Position numbers and translations under genes: made by a program. Under the pieces are notes generated by a model. The model did no database searches. It was not told where the DNA came from and saw nothing but the letters and a program-made list of their open reading frames with translations. A stretch of DNA of 64,000 nt from Glaucostegus cemiculus (Eukaryota), in contig CDPCPM010000278.1 in NCBI GenBank assembly GCA_976551045.1, positions 3,658,001 through 3,722,000 on the forward strand, in the 5' to 3' direction. Positions 7,701 to 64,000 of the stretch are shown here, piece by piece (the stretch's first letter is position 1; each line of letters begins with the position of its first letter).

Positions 7701-9204
7701 TTAAAATAAAATACTTAAAATAATTTTAACATCAAAATTAGTTGTATATTCTTTTAAATATACAATGTATTTTACGATCAGTTTAAAAATATACATTTTA
7801 AAAATATACCATGTATTTTACAGCCAACTTGTCCGTTGATCAAAATCAAAACCTCTATGTCTATATACCCCAAGATACTTCTGTTGAGTAACTTTACCGT
7901 AACAGGTAAATAGAAGTATAACATTTCAATAAGCTTTGGTATTAACGGAAAATGTTCAGAATACACGAGCATTTGCCCTTTAAAATGGACAACTGATAGA
8001 TCTGCAATATGAATCTTCACACAACAACTTGAATTAAAACATACATTTTAAAAAGAGAAACGTCGGGGAAAATGCGTGAAAACCCTCGAGAATAAAGACA
8101 AGACTCAATCGAAGTCGGGGCCACGAACAAATACAAACAAGTATATGGCTAAAATATAAATAAAATCAACACAAAATTGGGAGGGGGAGACTTGGGGCTA
8201 CAAATTTAAAGAACACGTAAAACGCTGTAAAATATACAACAATCCGCACCATTGCGCCCTGCGCGTCTAGAGGTCTCGATCTCCCTTTAAAGTCATAAAA
8301 TTACGTTTACAAAATGATCCAGAAACGCTTCGTTGAAATCACCGCCTTTCACCTATCGATCAAGTCGCAGTCAATATTGACCTCAAGGGGGAAAAAAATC
8401 GCAAGAATGTAAATGATGGAAAGGGCAGTAACCTCATTTAGCAATGACACGATTTCGATCTTACGAAATGCAGTTGCAAGTAAATTAAAATAAATGTTTG
8501 AGAAACTAGAATTTACATTGTGCAGTTACTAAACAACAGAAAGCACTGTTTCGTTCAGTCATTTTTGCAAAATGTGTATTATTTATGATCGCATGTGCGG
8601 AGATGGTGGCGTGGATAAAAGATTTCACTTTTTTTTAAACATTCAACCTATTAAACTTTGTATCTAGTCTTTAAAATCTTAACGTCGGGAAGGTAGTGTG
8701 ACATTAAAAAAATAAGAAAACACAGCCGTAGCTTTTCTCCTATGAATCCCGACATGATATTCCCAAGGCCAGCAACAGTGGTGAGAGGCATCCAAATTCA
8801 TAATTATTAATATTAATTCCAGACAGCTCCCTTTCGATGCAGCTGGAGACAGATCGGTAAATCCAGAGTACATGAAACAATAAGTAAGCCTGCCTTAGAC
8901 AGGCACATACACGGGACTGAAAAGACTGCGGAACAAGAGTGCAAACTGACAGATTTCAGGTCTGGATTTTTTTTTTGTTTCGTATGCACGCTTTAAAGGG
9001 AAACAAACTACCCTCCTCCCCCGATCGGCTACTTGCTCGCTCGTCTCCAGCTTTGCTTATCCTCGGACACAACCTCCGCCCCAAGCGCCAGCCGCATCTG
9101 TTAGAGCTGCAACCCCATAAGTTGGTCCATCGCCTGTGCAACTACCCTGGGCTCTTATTGCAGCCCCTGCAACTGGGATGCATTCTCCTAGCCCTCCCTT
9201 CCCC

Positions 9205-9510
9205 CCTCCCGACCCGTACTGGAGACCACCCCCCTCCCCGATTCACGATCCGTACTGGAGAACTCCCCCCCCCCACCCCGCCCCGACTCACGATCCGTAC
9301 TGGAGACCCCCTTCCCCCGACTCACGATACGTAACTGGAAACCCCCCCCCCTTCCCCAACTCATGATACGTAAAGTGGAGACCCCCCTTCCCCGACTCAC
9401 GATCCGTAACTGGAGACCCCCCCCTCACGATCCGTAACTGGAACACCCCCTCCCCGACTCACAATCCGTAACTGGAGACGCTCCCCCCTCTCGGTACTGA
9501 AACCCCCCTC
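9205..9510. repeat. Minisatellite, ~36-bp unit (gactcacgatccgtaactggagaccccccttcccc), ~8 variable copies
   Basis: Recurrent cacgatccgta(a)ctggaga core separated by C-runs. Confidence 0.9.
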
Positions 9511-9639
9511 CCCACCGGATCGCGCACCTTTCGCCCCTCCTGATCGATCCCGACAGCATCGCCCCCCCCCCCGAGCCCCGCTCGAGCTCCCGGCCACCGG
9601 CTCGTGGTCTCCCCCCCCGCCCCCACCGCTCGCGCCCCC

Positions 9640-10220
9640 CTCCCCCAACCTCACCCCCCAACAGCCTCCCCTTACCCCCCTCCCCCACCTCACCCCCCTC
9701 CCGCCACAGCCTCGCCTCACCTCACCCCCGCACAGCCTCGCCTCACCCCCCTCCCGCCACCTCACCCCCCCAACAGCCTCGCCTCACCCCCCCTCCCGCC
9801 ACCTCACCCCCCCAACAGCCTCGCCTCACCCCCCCTCCCGCCACCTCACCCCCCCAACAGCCTCGCCTCACCCCCCCTCCCGCCACCTCACCCCCCCAAC
9901 AGCCTCACCTCACCCCCCCTCCCGCCACCTCACCCCCCCAACAGCCTCACCTCACCCCCCCTCCCGCCACCTCACCCCCCCAACAGCCTCACCTCACCCC
10001 CCCTCCCGCCACCTCACCCCCCCAACAGCCTCACCTCACCCCCCAACAGCCTCACCTCACCCCCCCTCCCGCCACCTCACCCCCCCAACAGCCTCACCTC
10101 ACCCCCCCTCCCGCCACCTCACCCCCCCAACAGCCTCACCTCACCCCCCCTCCTGCCACCTCACCCCCCCCAACAGCCTCACCTCACCCCCCTCCCACCA
10201 CCTCACCCCCCCCCCCCCAC
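9640..10220. repeat. Minisatellite, 42-bp unit (cctcacccccccaacagcctcacctcaccccccctcccgcca), ~11 copies plus degenerate edges
   Basis: Direct tandem repeat; explains the 14-aa PPLPPPHPPNSLTS periodicity of ORF 9604..10455. Confidence 0.95.
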
Positions 10221-10840
10221 ACCCCGCTCGGCTCGTCGCTCGCACTGCCCTCCGCCGCACCCTCTCCCTCACAAAGCTTCCCTACGTCCAGTCCGCCCTG
10301 GGAGCCGGAGAGAGAGAGCGGCGGCAGCGGCGGCGGCGGAGGAGCCGGTCCCCCCCGCCCCGCTCCTCCCGACGACGATCAGCTGTCAACCCGCCACCAA
10401 CCTTCCATCACCAACACACACCAACAGCAGCCGAGAGAGGGGGGGGGGGGGATAACTGCCTCCCACTCACCTGCCCTCTTCAATCTTTGTTGCAGCGCCG
10501 AGGTACGAGTTGTGCGGCGACCTGGACAGCGAGGACGCTGAAAACAGCCCATTGCCCTGACCGGCGCAACCGACTGCACAGCACACATTACTGAAGCGCC
10601 GCTGCTTGCGGAGAGACCCGCGCCTGCGCAGAGCCACCGGAACCAACCCCTTGCTGCTTTTTTTCGCTGTGTGTGTGTGTGTGTGAGCCAGTGACCGGTC
10701 ACTCTCGCGAGAACGGGCGGTGACGTAGGCAGGGTCGGCGCTGGGCGGGCTGCGAGGGAGCGGGTGTGAGGGAGCTGTCCCGCCGCCGCTGTGGGCGTCG
10801 GCGGGCGGGAGGCAGCGCTTCATTGGACGGGGAGTGTTCT
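10220..10840 (-). promoter_or_regulatory. CpG-island housekeeping-type promoter of an unidentified minus-strand gene
   Basis: NRF1-type GCGCCTGCGCA at 10620-10630, TCTCGCGAGA (BANP/ZBTB33 motif) at 10703-10712, GC box at 10715-10720, CRE-like TGACGTA at 10721-10727, and CCAAT (minus) at 10822-10826, all in very CpG-dense DNA. Confidence 0.85.
10471..10660 (-). other. First exon of an unidentified gene (5' boundary approximate); 5' UTR and/or short N-terminal coding segment
   Basis: Consensus donor CAG|GTGAGT at 10471/10470 just downstream of the promoter motifs. In-frame ATGs at 10588 and 10552 stay open to the donor. No convincing downstream coding exon was found in 1-10470. Confidence 0.65.
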
Positions 10841-10944
10841 GTTGTTTGCACTAGTTGAGGTAGAGGAAAAACTTTTTTAAAATAAATTAGTGGGTACTGA
10901 AGTATTAAAGAGCTTCATAGTTTGTCTTCCCTCGTTACTGTCCT

Positions 10945-11340
10945 CTTCCCGCCTCAGCACTTCCTCCCTCCATCCTCATCCCGCCTCAGCACTTCCTCCC
11001 TCCATCCTCATTCCGCCTCAGCACCTCCTCCCGCCTCAGCACTTCCTCCCTCCATCCTCATCCCGCCTCAGCACTTCCTCCCTCCATCCTCATCCCGCCT
11101 CAGCACTTCCTCCCTCCATCCTCATCGCACCTCAGCACCTCCCCCCTCCATCCTCATCCCGCTTCAGCACCTCCTCCCGCCCCGTCACCCTCCTCCCGCC
11201 TCAGCACTTCTTCCCTCCATCCTCATCCCGCCTCAGTACCTCCTCCCTCCACCCTCCTCCCGCCCCGTCACCCTCCTGCCTCAGCACCTCCTCCCTCCAC
11301 CCTCCTCCCGCCTCGTCACCCTCCATCCTCCTCCCGCCCC
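10945..11340. repeat. Minisatellite, 32-bp unit (cccgcctcagcacttcctccctccatcctcat), ~12 full or partial copies
   Basis: Direct tandem repeat, degenerating towards the 3' side. Confidence 0.95.
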
Positions 11341-31329: not shown

Positions 31330-32990
31330 CCTTGACATAGCTGCCACAAGCTGGTTGCTACCTCAACCTGCCATGAGGTTGAATACCAAGGCCTCAAATT
31401 AACAAGGCCTCAGGAGCAGGCAAAATCCCTGCCAAAGTACTAGAGTGCAGTGGAAATATATTCTTGATATAAATTTATGACACAATCTGATAAGAGGTGT
31501 AGAGCATGCCATGGGACCTCAGAGAAGCTGTATTTCTAACCATCTTCAAGAAAGGTGATACCCAATTATGATAGTTAGAGAGGTGCCTCCCTATTCTGTG
31601 CAACAAAAAAGTCAGCAGAAGGATCCTCTTCAGTGGCCTTCTCCTAATGGCCAAGGAGCTTCTCCCAGACTCTCAATGTGGATTCACACTTCCAGAAGCA
31701 CAACAAATATAATCTTTATCACACAATGGACCGAAGAAAATTATAGAGGACAGCACCAATAGTTAAACCTTTTTCAGCCTTGCAAAAACATACAGCTTTG
31801 TCAACTGTGAGGAATTAAAGAGAATCCTGCTCAAATTTGGCTGTCTTCATTCATTTATTACTATTATCTGTCTGCTATATGGTAACATAGAAGTCTTGAT
31901 TTTAACCAACAGCTACATCACACACCAGTCCCAGTCCATACTAGGGTCAAGTAAGGCTTTGTAGTTGCTCAGGATAAGTGAGGAAGTAGTTGAATATTTG
32001 TCATCGTTTTTCTGAACCAAGATCTTCTCAGCCTCAGTCATTAAATTACAATATGGAGATGGCACTTGCATATTTGGATGTTCGGAGAATGCATTCCAAG
32101 ATGTTGTTGTTTCCTTTACTATAACAATACAGAGATAGGTTTTACACAAAACAAACAGCAAAGATTATCTTTCAATCTACCCCTACTGTGTAAAGCAACT
32201 CCCTAACAATTAAGATCCATGACAAGACCCTGGAAAATATGGATCACTTTCTATATCTTAGGAACCATCTTTTAGCAAAGTGAGATGTTGATGGCAACCA
32301 CTTTTTCCAGCGTGCCATCACACAGTCTGCTGATTGAGGAAATGAGGTCTGAAGACCAGTATCTCAAGTTCAAGTTATACTGAATAGCTATGATTCCCAG
32401 CCATTTATATGCTTTGGAGTCATGGACATCCTATAACAGATTAAAAAAAGTCCAGAGAATGGTGTCTCCACAAAACACTCCAAATTCACTGGCAGAATAG
32501 CAAACCATACCAACCTCCTCTCCCATTCTCATTCTCAAGTCTCAGATCATCCTCAACCGACTTCAGTATAGGGGTTGGGGTGGTGCATCATTCACATGGC
32601 TGACATTATACTCCTGAAACAAGCAGCCTTCTCCAAATTTATGAGATGGCAAGAGATTTCCAGTAGAACAAATATATTAATAAATTTTGTCTCTGAAAAT
32701 AATGTGCTATCTCCACCAAATTGGGAATCGCTGGCCTTTTCCTGTTCAAAATGGAGAATCAGCATCTGAGAAGGCACTCAGCACCTTGTGCCTCTACATC
32801 TGGAGCATGTAGAAGCCATTTGCAAACAACTGAAGGAACACATAGCCTCCAAAATACTTGTCCATCTGTCCCACCTGTGCAGACTCTGCAGATCCCACAA
32901 AAAACTCTTCAGCATTCCCGGAATCCAGAGAACTGGAGTGGATACAAATTATTCTCCACTCTGAGGAACTGCACTGGAAGAAGTAAGGAC
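31330..32990 (+). mobile_element. RTE-clade LINE fragment, degraded
   Basis: Similar to the 18897 copy (accatcttcaagaaagg, ggccaaggagcttctcccagactctcaatgtggatt, tatgctttggagtcatggac) with the RTE 3' region. Confidence 0.7.
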
Positions 32991-37158: not shown

Positions 37159-37300
37159 CAAGGATTGTGTAACACTCTTAAAAGATACTGTTTTTAGGAG
37201 GATTGTGTACAAGGATTGTGTAACACTCTTAAAAGATATTGTTTTTAGGAGGATTGTGTACAAGGATTGTGTAACACTCTTAAAAGATATTGTTTTTAGG
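37159..37300. repeat. Tandem repeat, 51-bp unit x2.8
   Basis: caaggattgtgtaacactcttaaaagata(c/t)tgtttttagg starts at 37159, 37210 and 37261. Confidence 0.95.
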
Positions 37301-38126: not shown

Positions 38127-38212
38127 CTTTGTGGCATGTCCTTATGTCTTCTACTGCTATGTGGTAGAGCACCTTTGGCATAAGGGTTGTACTCTATCTT
38201 CATCATCTTCAT
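38127..38212 (-). CDS. T-box gene exon 6: C-terminal helices of the T-box (MKMMKIEYNPYAKGALPHSSRRHKDMPQ-R)
   Basis: KI..NP.AKG motif equivalent to ITQLKIDNNPFAKGFR; acceptor tcccatag, donor AAAG|GTTGGT; 86 nt, phase 0 to 2. Confidence 0.88.
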
Positions 38213-38589
38213 CTATGGGATAAGATGAAGACTACATACAGTTAAAATCTTTTCCTTTGCAGTATGAACCCATAGAAAACATGATTTTCAATAATTCCGT
38301 AGGGTAAATGTCAAGAAGCAGACACTCCTGACTCCATTACTGATTTGAAGAGATGGGGAGAGATTCTGTGATTTAGATATCATCAGATATCCCATGTTGA
38401 GAAGTTTGATCATTATTTTTATTGATGTGAATGAATTAGGGAATAGGTTAGTCATGTGTTGTGTTTTGAAACGATGAAATTGCACAAAAAACTTCATAGA
38501 GCATATGTTAAATTTAGACAGGCTAGTTTGTGGAGTGCTGTTTCTCACAATCTATTTCAAGCTGATACATTATTGGCTTAGCTGAGCTA

Positions 38590-38830
38590 AAATGGCATTA
38601 TTCAAGGAAAAGTAATGGAGTTCTAATTGTATCCTGACTAATATTTATCCATCAACCAATATTAGTAAAACAAATTATATTGGACGTTGGCTTATTGCTG
38701 TTTGTGGAATTCTGCTGTAAGCAATTGACTCCTGCATTTCAACAATGACTATACTTAAAAAGAACTTTATGGCTGTAAAGTGCTTTGGAACACTATTAAT
38801 GCTATACAAGTGCAAGCTCTTTCTTTATTC
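38590..38830 (+). mobile_element. SacSINE1/Deu-SINE-like 3' half in T-box intron 5
   Basis: aatatttatccatcaaccaa...ttgctgtttgtgg...ggctgtaaagtgctttgg...gctatacaagtgcaagctctttcttt. Confidence 0.7.
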
Positions 38831-39259
38831 TTCCATTATTCCATTTGAATGCCTTAAGTAGAAAGATCTCAGTGCTCATATCCTAGATTTAGATATATGA
38901 ATAGATAAGGCCAGTGCAAAGCCTCTCATATAGGAAAATTATGGAAAGCCCCCACAATTTCCTGATTTGCACTCTACATGTCAGAACTCTGTGCTGGCAA
39001 TGCACACTGCAAATTGATCTTAAAGCAGTAAATGTGGAGTTCTGTTTTAATCACCTGTGGTGATCATATTGGATATTCATATTACACTTAGTAATTTCCT
39101 GCTTAAATTCTGGGAGGCTGATTGATAGAAATATATTTATATAGCTTGTCAAAGTCTCAAAACGTAATCAAATAAATTAAATCTGTTTGGTTACTGTTAT
39201 TAGACAAACGTGTCATCCATTATTTCCACAGTTAATGATGAAACAAATGATTGTTTAAT

Positions 39260-39600
39260 CTAGGGAGTCAGCCTTAACTCAGAGGTAGCAGTTTTGAATC
39301 AGTTGTCATGTTCAGTTCCCAAAACAGATCCTGAAGCACATAATCTAAACTGACAAATAAGGGGTATATAGAGGGAATGATACATCGTTCATAGTTTCAA
39401 CCTTGGGATGTAGCATTAAATTAAGAACATGTTAGATGGATTCCATGGCACTCTTTAAAGATCAGAGGAGTTATCATCAGTCAGTGTCTTGCCATACATT
39501 TACCCTTGATCAACATTGCATCTGGCATTAACCTCAATGTTGTTTTTTTCCATCCTTGCTGTGTGCAAGGTGGCTATTTCCCTACATTATACCAAATGTA
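39260..39600 (+). mobile_element. SacSINE1/Deu-SINE-like diverged copy in T-box intron 5
   Basis: tRNA-like head followed by ttccatggcactctttaaagatcagaggagtt...ttgctgtgtgcaaggtggct...cctacatta. Confidence 0.55.
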
Positions 39601-39765
39601 CTCCCATGCATGGTATACATACGTTGCCAATGAAGTGAGACTTGCAGTCTCTCTTAGAAATACAATAAAATTATTGTAATAATCTTAAGCAATCATTTGA
39701 ATTTGAACACAATTACATGAAGATATCAAATTTATTCTATAAAATGCTGAAGTCAAAAAACACAC

Positions 39766-39909
39766 CTTTTTGCTATGGTAGTGACCCACAGCTATAAATT
39801 CTGTTTCTGGGAAGCAGTATGTCCATGAACAAAGTTTAGACTTCAGTTGCTCAGCATTCTGAATCAAATGAATTCGGGGTCTGTATTTGTGCATCGGAGT
39901 CAAGGGAAT
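39766..39909 (-). CDS. T-box gene exon 5 (IPLTPMHKYRPRIHLIQNAEQLKSKLCSWTYCFPETEFIAVGHYHSKK)
   Basis: MHKY.PR.H and FPET.FIAV motifs; acceptor tacctcag, donor AAG|GTGTGT; 144 nt, phase 0 to 0. Both flanking introns sit at conserved T-box positions. Confidence 0.93.
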
Positions 39910-42900
39910 CTGAGGTACATAAAAGAGGCAGCATTAGGTAAATGGCTGGCATTATTGAAAGAAGGATGGAGTTGAGAAATCAAAAAAAAACCCTTGATGA
40001 AACAACTTAGAGATTTTATTTGTTGATGTTATTTATTCAACCATATACTGGGTAGCTCATTATGTTAGGAATTTCAGGACTTAGTTTCTGTTGTTGAATA
40101 AATGAAAAGCTTAAAAGCAAAGTATTCATTATGTCAGCACTACATAGGTCCAATGTCCTTTGTGTGTTTCTCCAAACATTGATATACGTCTGTGGTACCT
40201 AGTTCTAAAAGTGATTTTGCTGTTTTTTGTCCAAAACACATTTTATGACATGATTACCTCTAAACTCAACTGACAACCTTTAATCATTTTGTAGTGGTGA
40301 GTGGGCAATTATGATGATGATGATGCGGTTACTTGCAGTTACCTAGAGAAAAACTATACTAACAAAACTACAGATGAATCATTAAGATTCCAGATAACAC
40401 TATGAATTTTCAGAATCTGTGGGAATCCCTCATAAATGCCAGTTGAAAGCAACATTGGTGAGTAAGGGGGCAGTTGGAAGTGTAAGAGTGAGGCTATACA
40501 TCTTAGTAGAAAAGATAAGAAATGCAAGTATACACTCATGTAAATAGATGCTGAAGAATGTAGATCGGCAGAGACATTAAGCACTTTAAGTAAACAAAGG
40601 TGCATATGATCACAAAATGGCCACAAAGAAGTTGTAATAGAATGCAACTGTAAAGAATTAGTGATACATTTGTTAAAAATAATGATTGGGCCACTGTTAG
40701 ATGTTCAGTGTCCCTCATTATGGAAAGACATGAAAGCCGCAGATAGTGAACAGTAGAGTTTGAACAAAAGAGGGATGTAAAAAAGGGTGGAATTGAGGTA
40801 TTTGGGTGTCCTCTGAAGCAGGAAAAGTTGAGAGAAAATTTCAGAGCTTTTTAACATCATGATAGAATGTAGTGAGCGGGGACAATTTTCTTCCTAGGTT
40901 GGAAGTTAATGTTTTAAATGGGGGAGCTATTTTAAATTATCAGGAGGAATGAAGATAGTGGTATTAGAATTCTGGATTATTTTTCCACAGTACATGGTTG
41001 AAGCAGCCCATTGCACCTATCAGGGAAATTTCTATATCTATTTGAAGACTGAAATGAAATCTGAATTCATTTAATGTCCACACATTCAAGTGTATTAACT
41101 ACTGGGGATTGGTTCAGTAGACTATAAGTGAGAACATCCCATCCCCCACACCCTTCTTGCTTCTTTAGCTCATGGAAGGCACTGGAGGCCAATTCTAACA
41201 CTGTCATTTCTGCTTTTGGTAAGGTCAGCCAACTCAGCACAAACCAGCAATCAAACCTTCATCTTAATGGCTCAGTATCACACCTGCCAGGCTACTTAAC
41301 CATTGAAGGAACTGTACCTTTTCATTTGACGCATTCCTACTCAAGCTACAGTATCATCGGCACCATGGAGAAAACTGTCCATTCTCCAACATCTGTGCTG
41401 TCAATTTGCTGTCTCTAATGAGCAGCAAAATTAGAACAAAAGAAGGACAAAATCTACCTGTCTCCAGAATATAACATTGGAAAGATCTTTTCAACACTTT
41501 TCAATTTACATTAATTATGTCTGTAATAGCACTACAAAAAATATGTAACTTGACTAGTAAAAGATGGGTTTATTAGCATTCAAACAGCAGTAAAATAGCG
41601 GTCAAATATCACAAGTGATGAGCAGTTCTGACTGTCAGGGTAATTACTGGCTGGTTTGTCGGCAATCTTCTCGTTACAAAAGAACTCCATTAGCTAACCG
41701 CAGGGAAAATAGTTACACCTGCCATTTTGGTTCAATACATACAAAAATAACTGTGACACTTTACAGCATTAAACTGGGCTCCCTGCTGCTTTGTCAATTG
41801 TGAGGATTCCAGATCAGTCTGCATGTGGCATTTTGAAAGGTTCCACCTGCCAGCTAGGTTAGAAACAAATGTTTTAGACTCTGATCTGAAAGCTACAATG
41901 TTCCACAAAAAAATACAGTCCATTTTTTAAAAATAGCTTCCAGTCCTAATAATGCAAACCAAAAATATTTTTTAAATGCTCACAAAAGCTTAGAAATATG
42001 AAAGGTACACTTGTTCTGTAATGCAGTGCATTCCTGTAAAGTGTAGAAATTAATTTTCACAATTTTATAGAGTTATCTAGGGTGCACACTCAAAGCAAAT
42101 TACTCAGCTAAAAGCACTTGCTGTGAATTCTGACAGTTAATGGGTACCTCATTAAGCCTCATCATTCAACTAGTTCAAAATCATCTCCCTGCACCTTCAA
42201 CTTTCCTGCCAAGAATCTAATTTCATATGAGCTATTCTGAATGATGTCATAGCAGAAAAGAGTTTGAGTAAGATTCAACCTGTGTTATCACTGGAGCAAT
42301 CCAATATGCAGAAAAGGGTGACATATTTTGACAATAAGATTGAAGGGTCTTTAAGGATTTTTAAACTGAGTGTGATAATTTCAATAATCAACCTGTTATA
42401 TGTCAGAATTTTAAAGCCTTTTTTTCCATTAGTAATTTGGGCTGGAGATTTATATAAGAGGAACACTTCACTGGATACTCTTAGAATGCTGGAGTGCAAA
42501 ATGGTATCAAATTCACACAAACAATTCACCAGTCAATTTTTGATCCTAAACTGCAGAGAGTTATATGGTACAACTGTTCAGGAATCTCTTTGTGTAATGA
42601 ATATAGCTCTTCTTTAAAGGGAAACAACCTGTTAAGGTTTTTATATGCAGTACCAAAGAAGTAAATCAGGGTCTCATAGCTCCCTTCTTCCATTGCTCAA
42701 AATTCCCTTCATTCATCAGCCACTCAGAAAAATTATATGTTATTCATCTCCAAGGTATGTGTTATGTGCTTGCAATACTGAGCTGTGGGAACGTTGAACC
42801 TGAACATGATCCTGACCCTGACCTCAATATACATTGAAACATTCCAGCAATGGTAAAAGGATGGTATTCCTGGCTTTTCCTTATTATGACTCTGAGACCT

Positions 42901-46375: not shown

Positions 46376-46498
46376 CATTCCTTTGTTGTCAGTCCCATTT
46401 GTTGTGCAGATTTTGAGCAGTTTAAAAGTTATGGGCTTGTCATTCAGCTCAGCTCCAAGGGCTGGTGTATCTGAGTGGATATAAACTCCACTTGATTG
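46376..46498 (-). CDS. T-box gene exon 4 (QSSGVYIHSDTPALGAELNDKPITFKLLKICTTNGTDNKGM)
   Basis: Aligns with the canonical Y.HPDSP..G..WM...VSF.KLKLTNN block; acceptor cctgtatag, donor ATG|GTGAGT; 123 nt, phase 0 to 0. Too short for the ORF track. Confidence 0.9.
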
Positions 46499-47534: not shown

Positions 47535-47685
47535 CTGCTGTCGAGCTGGAGCAGATGGGCACCAGCCCCGCTCCTCTGTGTAGGAGTAGCGCTGATCACT
47601 GCTTGACTCCATATCCACCATAAGTGTGTATGACTTTTCTGGATCTAAACCATGCAGTGTGATGACAATAGGGGGGAACAAACAT
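47535..47685 (-). CDS. T-box gene exon 3 (CLFPPIVITLHGLDPEKSYTLMVDMESSSDQRYSYTEERGWCPSAPARQQ)
   Basis: FP......GLDP...Y....D......RY.....W motif; acceptor ttttattccacag, donor CAG|GTAGGA; 151 nt, phase 2 to 0. Confidence 0.93.
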
Positions 47686-60540: not shown

Positions 60541-61499
60541 ATCCTGAAAACAATCCTTTCTTCCAGCGTCCACACGCAATGTACTTCGGGATCACCCAAG
60601 CAGAAACTTTGCCCAATATTTCCTAAAATTGCAGCGCTTCAGACAGCCTGGACTTTTAGCGAAATTAGTCACTGGGGAAACTAATGCTGAGGTCATTGTG
60701 TTACAAATGTGCAGAGGTATGTACCTAAGATAGGCCACCTGATGACAGTACCTGTACAATAGGTGCATCGTTAAAGGGGGGGGGGGAGGGGAGGTCATCA
60801 AGGTCAGAAATGGACAGCAGACGCTAATTCTTAAAGGATTTTGATATTAACCTGAAAGTCTCACAATTTGGAATATGCCACCCCAGGAAAGAAGTTCTGC
60901 AGGTGTCGTTTACAAATATCTTGCAATTAACTCAGCGAAAAATCCCAAAGCGCTTAACCCTATGTAAAATGAACTCTTGCTGTGTAGCTTTCCCCTGCTT
61001 TCATACAGATCCATGGATAGTGTTAGCACATTCTTCTTCTGTGAATTGACTGCGATAACCATGGAGAATATCACACCTTAGGCGAATCTATCTTCCCTGA
61101 GATCTCCTTTTAGGTTTACTGAGGCAGGAACCCAGACTGATTTCTAACTCATTAGCCTTGAAGCACCAGTGGCGTGGAAACACGACAAGAATTCCGCTCA
61201 TCGTGATTATAAAAACTACATTAAAAAAAAACTTCCAAGAAAAAAAAATTAATCAGTTTAGATTTTGTGATCCCATTTGAGATTAAAAATGTCAAATATG
61301 TGTTTTTGCTTCTAGCGGTTAAAATTACTGCCCCCCCCCCCCGCACACACACAAAATTTAGAATTAGTAATTGCCACAGGAGGGATACTCACATGGAACC
61401 GCACCCCAGTGTGAGTCGGTGTCGCCAGGTGGAGAGGAATAACAAATGTGGGTAATAAAATGAGATGGAAATGAAAGGTTACACTCTCCGTTACCGTAC

Positions 61500-61637
61500 C
61501 TTCCTCTGCCTGTCACTATCATCTCGGTGCCCACTGAATGGAACTTGCTCCACAGCAACTCGTTCTCCTTAACCAGTCTGATTACTGGCACCATCCTGGT
61601 GGTTTCCAGATCCATGGGAGAGAAAATATTATATGCT
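61500..61637 (-). CDS. T-box gene exon 2: start of T-box domain (AYNIFSPMDLETTRMVPVIRLVKENELLWSKFHSVGTEMIVTGRG-R)
   Basis: LW.KFH..GTEMIVT..GR signature. Acceptor T9-AG at 61638; donor AG|GTACGG splits the Arg codon in phase 2, the intron position typical of T-box genes. Confidence 0.9.
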
Positions 61638-62313
61638 CTAAAAAAAAATGCTCTTTAAGAAAAGTTTCCACCGTAAAGTTGCTTGGCGATAAGTGCGCCA
61701 ATCCTTCGGTTTGGGATCACTGGCCGCACATCAGAACGCGAGTCTCAACATCACCACCAGTAAAGAAACCAAAGCTGGACTTTTAATCGTTTCCGAAGGT
61801 TACACTTGGCTTTGCTGAACGTGTTAATCCTGTAGTAATTTTCATCAATAGAGCATTTTGTTTGAAATATCTCTGTCTGTGTTCAAAGCCGCCGGAGCCT
61901 GGTCGACCATCAAGATGACGCCTCGGTGAGATAAAGCTGCACGCACACTGGATGCGGGCGTGATTTTTTGTCAGGGAAGGTAGATTCACTGTCAAAGACA
62001 AGGCCAGTTGAATAGTCATCGGTCACATTCTGGTCTTCGGCGTAAGTGCAGATGCTGCGGTGTGCCTCTTCCGTCTGGATGCTGCTGCTGTCTCCCGTTG
62101 CTGCTTTATCTGACCCCCCGATCGCTTCTCTCCGGCTGGCTGTCTGCGGGCAGATCCTGGGAGGTTTGGATCTCCTGTCTGTCCTCGGCTGCCAGTCTCT
62201 ATCCGATCCGATCCGGTCTCGAATCGCCTGGAACTGGTGATCTGATCTCTCATCACAGACCCGTCCCCCCCGCCCCCCCCCCCCCTCGGCTCACCTCTCC
62301 CTAACACTCTTAC

Positions 62314-62447
62314 CTAAAATTTCTTATATTTTTCATCTGACACGCTGCGATCACAAGATCTCTTCCGGGAGCTGCAGCCTCTCTGTTCCCTTCCCTGGGC
62401 TCCATCGTTTTTCTCTTAATCCAGTTATTTTTATCCAACAGCACCAT
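62314..62447 (-). CDS. Divergent T-box gene, probable first coding exon (MVLLDKNNWIKRKTMEPREGNREAAAPGRDLVIAACQMKNIRNF-R)
   Basis: Open frame from ATG 62447 (in-frame TAG further upstream) to a strong donor AG|GTAAGA at 62314/62313. The phase-2 end joins in frame to the acceptor at 61637. There is no homology support for this N-terminus and the start ATG is uncertain (three in-frame ATGs). Confidence 0.55.
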
Positions 62448-64000
62448 CCCCCTCCCCGCCACAATAATCGCCACAATGTTCTCTCTCTGTCTCTCCAGTT
62501 CAATCTTCTAAATTGTTGCCTTTTACTTAGATGGAAAAAAATATCAAGCAGTCGAGACGGCGTGGTTGGTGCGTGAAGCCCTATCCATCACCCAGTAACG
62601 TCCTATTATTATCATCGGGTCAATCAGCTGCTCGGAAAGAGAAAATAAACACTCTTTTCAGCATCTGACGTGTCACTTTCGTCCTCACGCCACAAATTCT
62701 GGCAGCAGCAACATGTAACCGCATCTTCACCCAGACCCGAACCAGTTGCACGGTGATGTCAAGTAGCAGCTGGTGCCAGCCAGCTTTGGGATAACAGACA
62801 CTCGCAGCAACCGGCTCCTCGTCGCTCAACCCCTGTTAAAGAGACAGAGCCGTTTGGAGAGTGGTGTTTTTTGCACGTTTGTGTTTCTTGAAGGACTGCA
62901 AAGAAATTCTAGTCATTAATTCAGAGTGAATTAGGCTAACAGCGGCTTTTTTAAACTTGTGGATCAAGGTTATGCAATTCCAGTGGCGATTTTCAGTGAA
63001 ATTATTGGGCAATCAATTACCTCCATGCACTTTCTTCTTGTTAATTACCCTCATTCTCAAAATTTATATTATCTCATTCACACACACACAAAGAAAACGA
63101 TTCAATTAGGCACAAGAAGTACCATTTACTTTAATAGCCTATTCTGTCGACAAATGGATGAGTTTTATAAAATGGTTAAGTATATGGTGAAATTCTAACA
63201 AAATCAAAAGAAAAGCTGAAAACACCCAGTATAGAGGACGGTATCTGTGGATAAAAGAAGTCAGGGTTCATATTAATGATCAATGATAATTTTTCATGGG
63301 AATATTTTAATTTGAATATAGAGAGTAGAAAGTTGTGATTCAATGTATTGTTTCAGTATTTCTTTAGGGATGCCTTCATGGAAAATGTTTTTTAATTGGG
63401 AAAGGTGCAGATTATTTATAGACATAGCTTTTAAAAACATGCATGGGTAGATGAGCACACTAGAAATTATATATGTGTTAATGCCCAGCATAAACCGTGG
63501 AAATTGTTGATCCCACAATATTAGACCTCTACCACCATGGCCTGGATACTCCCAATGTCTCTGACCTCTCTCACCCAGAGTCTCCGGTGTCCCTTTTAGC
63601 TGTTACATGGGCCTCTGGCCTCTCTTTCTGCTGTTTCTAGGATCCTTCCCTCTCCAGTGACTTTTGCAAATTATGACAGCTCAATAGAAAACAAGTATTA
63701 TTTTTCTGCAATTTTGTCTGTCTTGTGTGCAGCTGAGCTGCAATTTTTTTGAAATGTATTCTGCAATTTAGATCAGGTCTCTATTTAATGTATGATTGAA
63801 ATAGTTTTTCAATTACTGAAAGGTCTTCAATTGTAATGCTTTGGACAATTCTGAGCACAGCACTGTAGGGAATGTGCACAGCATTTAGAAAGCTAAGTGG
63901 AGGTTTACATGGATGTTACTTCAGCTGTGAGAAGCTGGACAAATTAGGATATGTTCTGTTTGGAAGTGACCTCAAAGAATTTTCATGATGTTGAGCTGTT

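Follow-up and report, generated by a model that had tools for sequence, protein, structure and literature searches.

T-box contacts with DNA have been described for Brachyury, where the only direct hydrogen bonds to bases come from R69 and the carbonyl of F213, F213 and F217 form a wedge in the minor groove, and T196 and A197 contact thymine methyl groups (PMC11828899, available part). The same source states that T-box domains bind half-sites as monomers. In C. elegans, TBX-33 as well as TBX-39 and TBX-40 have changed contact residues and new DNA motifs (PMC4434323, available part), a precedent indicating that contact changes can give new motifs. FAM222A and FAM222B have been described as vertebrate-only proteins without a recognizable domain (PMC12690120, available part). 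For human FAM222A, that source reports NLK docking and MEIS/PBX partners, mostly from modeling and interactome data, the NLK binding coming largely from AlphaFold3 modeling and the interactome. FAM222B is nucleoplasmic and has been linked to laterality defects (PMC13499801, available part), and FAM222A has been linked to Alzheimer plaques.

We analyzed 64,000 nucleotides of DNA from the ray Glaucostegus cemiculus (the window), which encode a T-box on the minus strand. This T-box resembles those of Brachyury/TBXT, TBX5 and TBX3 in Pfam score, predicted fold, three intron places and the residues R69, Y88 and Y198 (residue numbers are those of human Brachyury, checked against the residues named in the available part of PMC11828899). 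It differs from them in 17 of 54 family-conserved columns, in an extra intron and in a FAM222 C-terminal part. Its 3' exons are the orthologue of FAM222A, of the FAM222A/FAM222B family (PF15258; aggregatin; with the DCD222 NLK-binding region); unlike the described members, the ray FAM222A carries a T-box at its N-terminus and has a relative in amphioxus. Altered DNA-contact residues are shared with the C. elegans proteins, whose residues are known here from description only, but those proteins belong to an unrelated nematode expansion and have no FAM222 fusion.

The T-box exons and their DNA-contact surface

The full T-box is encoded by five minus-strand exons with canonical splice sites. Coding exon 1 (61500..61615) starts with an ATG at 61615 and ends inside the codon of the Arg equivalent to Brachyury R69. 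It lies in a CpG-rich segment (61000..63000, minus strand; CpG observed/expected 0.71-0.75, compared to about 0.15 in introns) that would serve the T-box transcript as promoter and 5' UTR. Exon 2 (47535..47685) was seen spliced to exon 3 in one contig (run X1). Exon 3 (46376..46498) gave a profile match with E 2.5e-7, and its splice joints were seen in contigs (with loose ends at 39910). Exons 4 (39766..39909) and 5 (38127..38212) have AG/GT ends and are separated by a 1553-nt intron; their joint was found in contigs of three of four runs. Raw RNA reads from three runs, about one-fifth of each, gave no cover of the T-box exons, which is uninformative on expression. The three usual T-box intron places (at G-R, before xMHKY and before helix 3) are common to the paralogues, and the intron after PARQQ is at a position found in no paralogue of this genome.

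Several other features were observed near these exons. An 82-nt segment with AG/GT ends at 41765-41846 (minus strand), within the intron between exons 3 and 4, has the translation of an alternative exon of a Narcine model (27/27 codons identical). Its inclusion in frame leads to a stop at codon 11, and it is a candidate conserved poison exon or enhancer. At 32284-32430 (minus strand) there is an 88% match to the final exon of a Pristis model in which exon 5 is skipped, leaving the model without the recognition helix; the matching exon may be repeat-derived. At 37160-37300, a 53-base unit was noted by eye in about 2.5 tandem copies.

The domain matched Pfam T-box PF00907 over residues 17-192 with 164.8 bits (cut-off 26). 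A fold model reached a pLDDT of 87 and superposed on 1xbr with an rmsd of 1.8 Å and a TM score of 0.91, with an alignment dominated by canonical members (94 canonical T-boxes in 99 rows). Because the alignment is mostly canonical T-boxes, this test leans towards a positive outcome; the model from eight orthologues alone had a pLDDT of 42. The T-box fold is thus predicted to be intact, with no last helix predicted past residue 194.

The replacements that the original prediction had reported, TAYQN>GHYHS and NPFAKGFR>NPYAKGAL, are real and can be read in the translations of exons 4 and 5. Exon 4 (39909-39766) ends in FIAVGHYHSKK, with GHYHS, the TAYQN equivalent, at 39786-39772. Exon 5 (38212-38127) reads MKMMKIEYNPYAKGALP, with NPYAKGAL at 38188-38165, and ends in a phase-2 donor. 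The structural motifs MHKY.PR.H and FPETEFIAV are retained, also as claimed. Two comparisons with TBX5 mutations (T223 and R237, listed in the available part of bioRxiv 2020.05.16.099648) fared less well. With the native numbering of TBX5 from chain 5bqd, the G that had been equated with T223 aligns to T215, and T223 itself aligns to a K in MKMMK. There is indeed an L at the position of R237, but it is uninformative, as L is also native in Brachyury and TBX19 (NPFAKAFL).

The ray T-box kept G68, R69, Y88, K147, H164-Y166, Y198, K207, N211, P212, A214 and K215. It carries K66G, R70C, S162P, T196G, A197H, Q199H, N200S, T204K, F213Y and F217A (read as L when a one-residue gap is introduced), and K103, K114, K145 and N150 are also changed. 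Both minor-groove phenylalanines and both thymine-methyl contacts are therefore replaced. T196, N200 and F217 show 99-100% conservation across the T-box family. The residues G, H and H at positions 196, 197 and 199 were found in none of 155 other T-box domains and in none of the 17 paralogues in the genome, and Y213 was found in two of the 155. A hagfish Tbx16 model (P0052), whose T-box is canonical apart from this residue, carries F213Y naturally (NPYAKGFR). Among 15 family-wide basic columns, elasmobranchs kept seven and lost eight, with 12 gained elsewhere; the loss counts against a DNA-binding reading. The net charge of 196-217 is +4/+5, compared to 0 to +3 in the 17 paralogues, none of which has as basic a helix 3. 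Judged by these residues, half of the readout is kept and half gone.

Orthologues were present in 19 species of sharks and rays as well as in the chimaera Callorhinchus. GHYH is invariant in 19/19 elasmobranchs and NPYAKG in 18/18 elasmobranch models that include the exon; the chimaera has both. The original prediction had proposed checking whether these positions vary randomly among orthologues; they do not, and this supports a conserved non-canonical surface. R69 is R, and the co-activator pocket tyrosine Y88 is kept, in 19/19 elasmobranchs, with R69 also R in chimaera and amphioxus. Y198, K147, K207, N211, A214, K215 and an aromatic residue at 213 are likewise kept in sharks, chimaera and amphioxus. 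In spliced contigs of other species, 15 of 18 codon differences were synonymous (20% expected, P 1.6e-8). T-box identity between sharks and rays is 86-92%, similar to that of the FAM222A part, and identity to the chimaera is 77%. The gene is under purifying selection and is not decaying.

Splicing into FAM222A

FAM222A exons lie on the same strand, 107 and 160 kb beyond T-box exon 5. The phase-2 donor of exon 5 was joined to FAM222A exon 2 (G000:C278:3589005, outside the window and 107 kb away), which is followed by the large FAM222A exon (C278:3535949-3534687, also outside the window). The joined exons give an open frame of 671 amino acids, with 12 differences from Mobula models, and the ray model matched FAM222 PF15258 with 252.7 bits. 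In run X12, an unbranched 4366-nt contig (depth 41) passes straight from exon 5 to the FAM222A exon and has a 9-nt deletion that preserves the frame; this evidence for the junction is one contig from one study of another species, its run is not registered as RNA, and a contig does not prove one full-length molecule. Within the 471 kb searched, the two halves of the contig's loose end have no match other than the FAM222A exon. Contigs of two other runs (X2, X5) end in different 3' exons. Of the 20 species with the T-box, 14 have fused T-box-FAM222A models and the other six have separate models only, with T-box-only tails that differ between species. No conserved last exon of the T-box's own was found among the T-box-only models. 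The original prediction was right about the substitutions, but it missed this in-frame link to FAM222A and its ancestry.

The gene order on the contig is MMAB - T-box - FAM222A - TCHP, which, set beside the human order, agrees with the orthology of FAM222A. A second CpG island (8500..11000, minus strand) is the putative promoter of a T-box-less FAM222A transcript. The presumed first exon of this FAM222A transcript has its GT donor at its end, 10471; the T-box transcript would skip this exon, which matches alternative first exons of two shark models with E 0.001 and 0.48. G-rich tandem repeats (minus strand) at 9650-10230 and 10950-11340 flank this presumed first exon. Since FAM222A's own first exon and the linker share one frame, the open linker is not specific evidence for the fusion. 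We infer one locus with two promoters and with long T-box-FAM222A, T-box-less and minor T-box-only forms. A Stegostoma model (P0007) joins the T-box, FAM222A exon 2 and TCHP, which in the ray lies about 160 kb beyond FAM222A (G000:C278:3352956-3371249). Either long read-through splicing occurs at the locus or it is mis-modeled there.

Ancestry of the T-box-FAM222 gene

The 2.85-Gb genome gave 73 T-box matches among the best candidates, grouped into 17 further T-box genes whose names we presume from their signature motifs. Identity of the ray T-box to each of these is only 31-41%, and its stem branch is long (1.5 substitutions per site). An AU test rejected six of 18 placements (TBXT, TBX19, TBX1, TBX4, TBX5 and TBX15/18/22; p < 0.05), and a sister placement to Tbx6/16/MGA had p values of 0.11-0.41. 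Automatic names (VegT-A-like, mls-1-like, TBX6L-like) and Atlas neighbors lean towards Tbx6/16/MGA, but the ray genome has its own Tbx16-like gene and two MGA-type genes, and larger trees place the ray T-box outside that group with weak deep support. Identity with TBX6 or TBX10 was considered and is opposed by the tree and by the amphioxus sister; no clear TBX6 or TBX10 was seen among the 73 matches, which may be a limit of the assembly or search. A second divergent T-box (L002; G000:C284:2433868-2434416) is intronless and sister to MGA, with support of 99.8/99 for the group of MGA, this gene and Tbx16-like. It has TKYEN and NPYGTAL for TAYQN and NPFAKGF, a parallel F213Y and F217L.

Scanning 1.84 billion cluster representatives yielded 2413 matches, and among the best 150 of these, identity outside the shark cluster never exceeded 43%. 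The sister of the chondrichthyan T-box is an amphioxus protein, XP_019614033.1 (P0110, labeled TBX5-like). It was placed there with support of 0.97 by FastTree (171 rows, with eight very divergent or multi-domain representatives left out) and 98.1/97 by IQ-TREE, to which five of the eight were returned as long-branch controls; none was attracted. It was also the top outlier among 181 (z 4.3). Behind its T-box lie the FAM222 conserved block and then the C-terminal block, in the order found in FAM222, and these were noticed only after the tree placement. They include helix H1, the LSIKI-type docking motif and GLLAI, as named in the available part of PMC12690120. A FAM222 profile built from shark FAM222A and this genome's FAM222B, without amphioxus, was run against 213 T-box proteins, and five amphioxus records were the only ones matched (E from 3e-9 to 7e-8, with 5e-9 for the sister protein); the next protein had an E of 0.11. 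The amphioxus score was 31.4 bits, compared to a maximum of 7.6 in 1823 scored of 2000 shuffles. The amphioxus tail gave no FAM222 match against Pfam at E 1, phmmer with a single FAM222A sequence did not recover the amphioxus protein at E 0.01, and an Atlas query with the tail gave no usable match. For amphioxus, the protein comes from a gene model in a single genus.

Thirteen family-conserved columns were changed in both lineages (Fisher P 0.006), including K66, T196, A197, Q199, N200, T204 and F217. Amphioxus keeps R69, Y198, K207, N211, A214, K215 and F213. The replacements themselves differ by lineage (GHYHS and SSYYS; NNKFAKNL in amphioxus; A, T or L at position 217), so no single new code is conserved across chordates. 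On their own, shared rare residues separate amphioxus poorly from controls (seven, compared to up to six among 166). Shared ancestry of the ray and amphioxus T-box-FAM222 genes is highly probable. The sister placement and both FAM222 blocks together suggest that T-box-FAM222 was probably the ancestral chordate form and that bony-vertebrate FAM222A and FAM222B lost the T-box. The DNA surface also appears, from the residues compared, to have been remodeled already in the chordate ancestor. Protein searches found no bony-fish, tetrapod or cyclostome member, and since these were protein searches only, the T-box loss is an indirect conclusion. No T-box remnant was present in the 200 kb upstream of the large FAM222B exon in this genome.

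Possible functions and alternatives

We propose, with a probability of roughly 0.4, an unnamed chordate T-box class with a FAM222 tail, complete in amphioxus and all cartilaginous fishes, that recognizes a site different from the T half-site and is connected to NLK and MEIS/PBX, with human FAM222A and FAM222B as headless tails from an internal promoter. In such a protein, the T-box would dock on DNA through R69, Y198, K147, K207, N211, K215, Y213 and the more basic helix 3. It would lack T196 and A197 for reading thymine methyls, F217 as the second aromatic in the minor groove, and several of the backbone lysines, so that TCACACCT would not be read normally, and His at 197 could make a new base contact. 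The chances are about even for the whole reading, in which the 671-residue protein is the ancestral chordate form and acts as a nuclear, partner-dependent factor binding DNA weakly or at a non-canonical site, and the changed specificity, taken on its own and judged from residues, could equally well hold or fail. The disordered FAM222 tail, in which NLK docking motifs are present in the sequence, would act as a regulatory region through NLK docking and MEIS/PBX partners. The internal promoter may have yielded the T-box-less isoform that was the sole survivor in bony vertebrates, as FAM222A and its paralogue FAM222B.

The original prediction had offered either changed recognition or a decoy similar to Id proteins. 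Id proteins are HLH proteins without the basic region, the DNA-binding segment, that poison obligate dimers; the idea in common is a family member that works without its own DNA readout. The ray T-box, in contrast, keeps most of the DNA-binding segment of a domain that binds as a monomer. The conserved non-canonical surface agrees with the prediction, but a simple decoy is disfavored by the base-contacting R69 and the other contacts kept from sharks to amphioxus, which the prediction did not note. A wider form of the decoy idea is a strong rival, if less probable than the main reading: the T-box of the ancient T-box-FAM222 protein would no longer bind DNA and would serve for protein interaction, and MEIS/PBX, NLK or other T-box factors would tether the protein as a cofactor or scaffold. 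The loss of eight of 15 basic positions and of F217, T196 and A197, the freedom of position 217 across lineages, the missing last helix in the fold model, the kept co-activator pocket and the apparent dropping of the T-box by bony vertebrates, which retained the tail, all agree with such a role. The eight contact positions kept in sharks, chimaera and amphioxus, the 12 new basic columns and the more basic helix 3 argue against it.

Binding to the canonical T half-site, with the changes compensated (R67 for K66, F213Y and added lysines), seems very unlikely: the R69 side chain and 213 carbonyl contacts could still be made, but three residues that are nearly invariant in the family, T196, N200 and F217, are all changed. 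It is unlikely, if somewhat less so, that this is a stand-alone divergent T-box of cartilaginous fishes, with the FAM222A join an incidental read-through and the amphioxus likeness a convergence or model artifact. The two separate CpG islands and the T-box-only contigs in two of three runs with cover would suit a stand-alone gene, as would the Stegostoma model, which extends even into TCHP and suggests that read-through happens at the locus. These have to be set against the deep unbranched contig spanning the junction, the lack of a conserved last exon of its own and the fact that the tree and the FAM222 motifs independently indicate the same amphioxus protein. The long stem branch might suggest a decaying pseudogene or relaxed duplicate, which is scarcely credible given the intact frame, canonical splice sites, 15/18 synonymous differences and 77% chimaera identity.

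The text and four supplements of PMC12690120, in the available part, mention T-box, amphioxus and Branchiostoma zero times; its alignment figure may show long shark N-termini. No description of T-box-FAM222 was found in the literature on FAM222A, shark or chondrichthyan T-box genes and amphioxus T-box genes, a search that did not extend to subscription classification reviews, in which the amphioxus gene may already be named. Fused T-box-FAM222A models are already in NCBI under automatic names.

If the proposed T-box-FAM222 class is real, it would add a new class to a T-box family whose vertebrate inventory is thought complete. It would also provide a long-conserved natural experiment on the extent to which T-box DNA recognition can shift. 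Human FAM222A and FAM222B are likely what is left, without its head, of a T-box transcription factor that has been overlooked, and as former transcription-factor tails they would fit the reported MEIS/PBX and NLK partners. These orphan human proteins would then gain an origin and a testable function.
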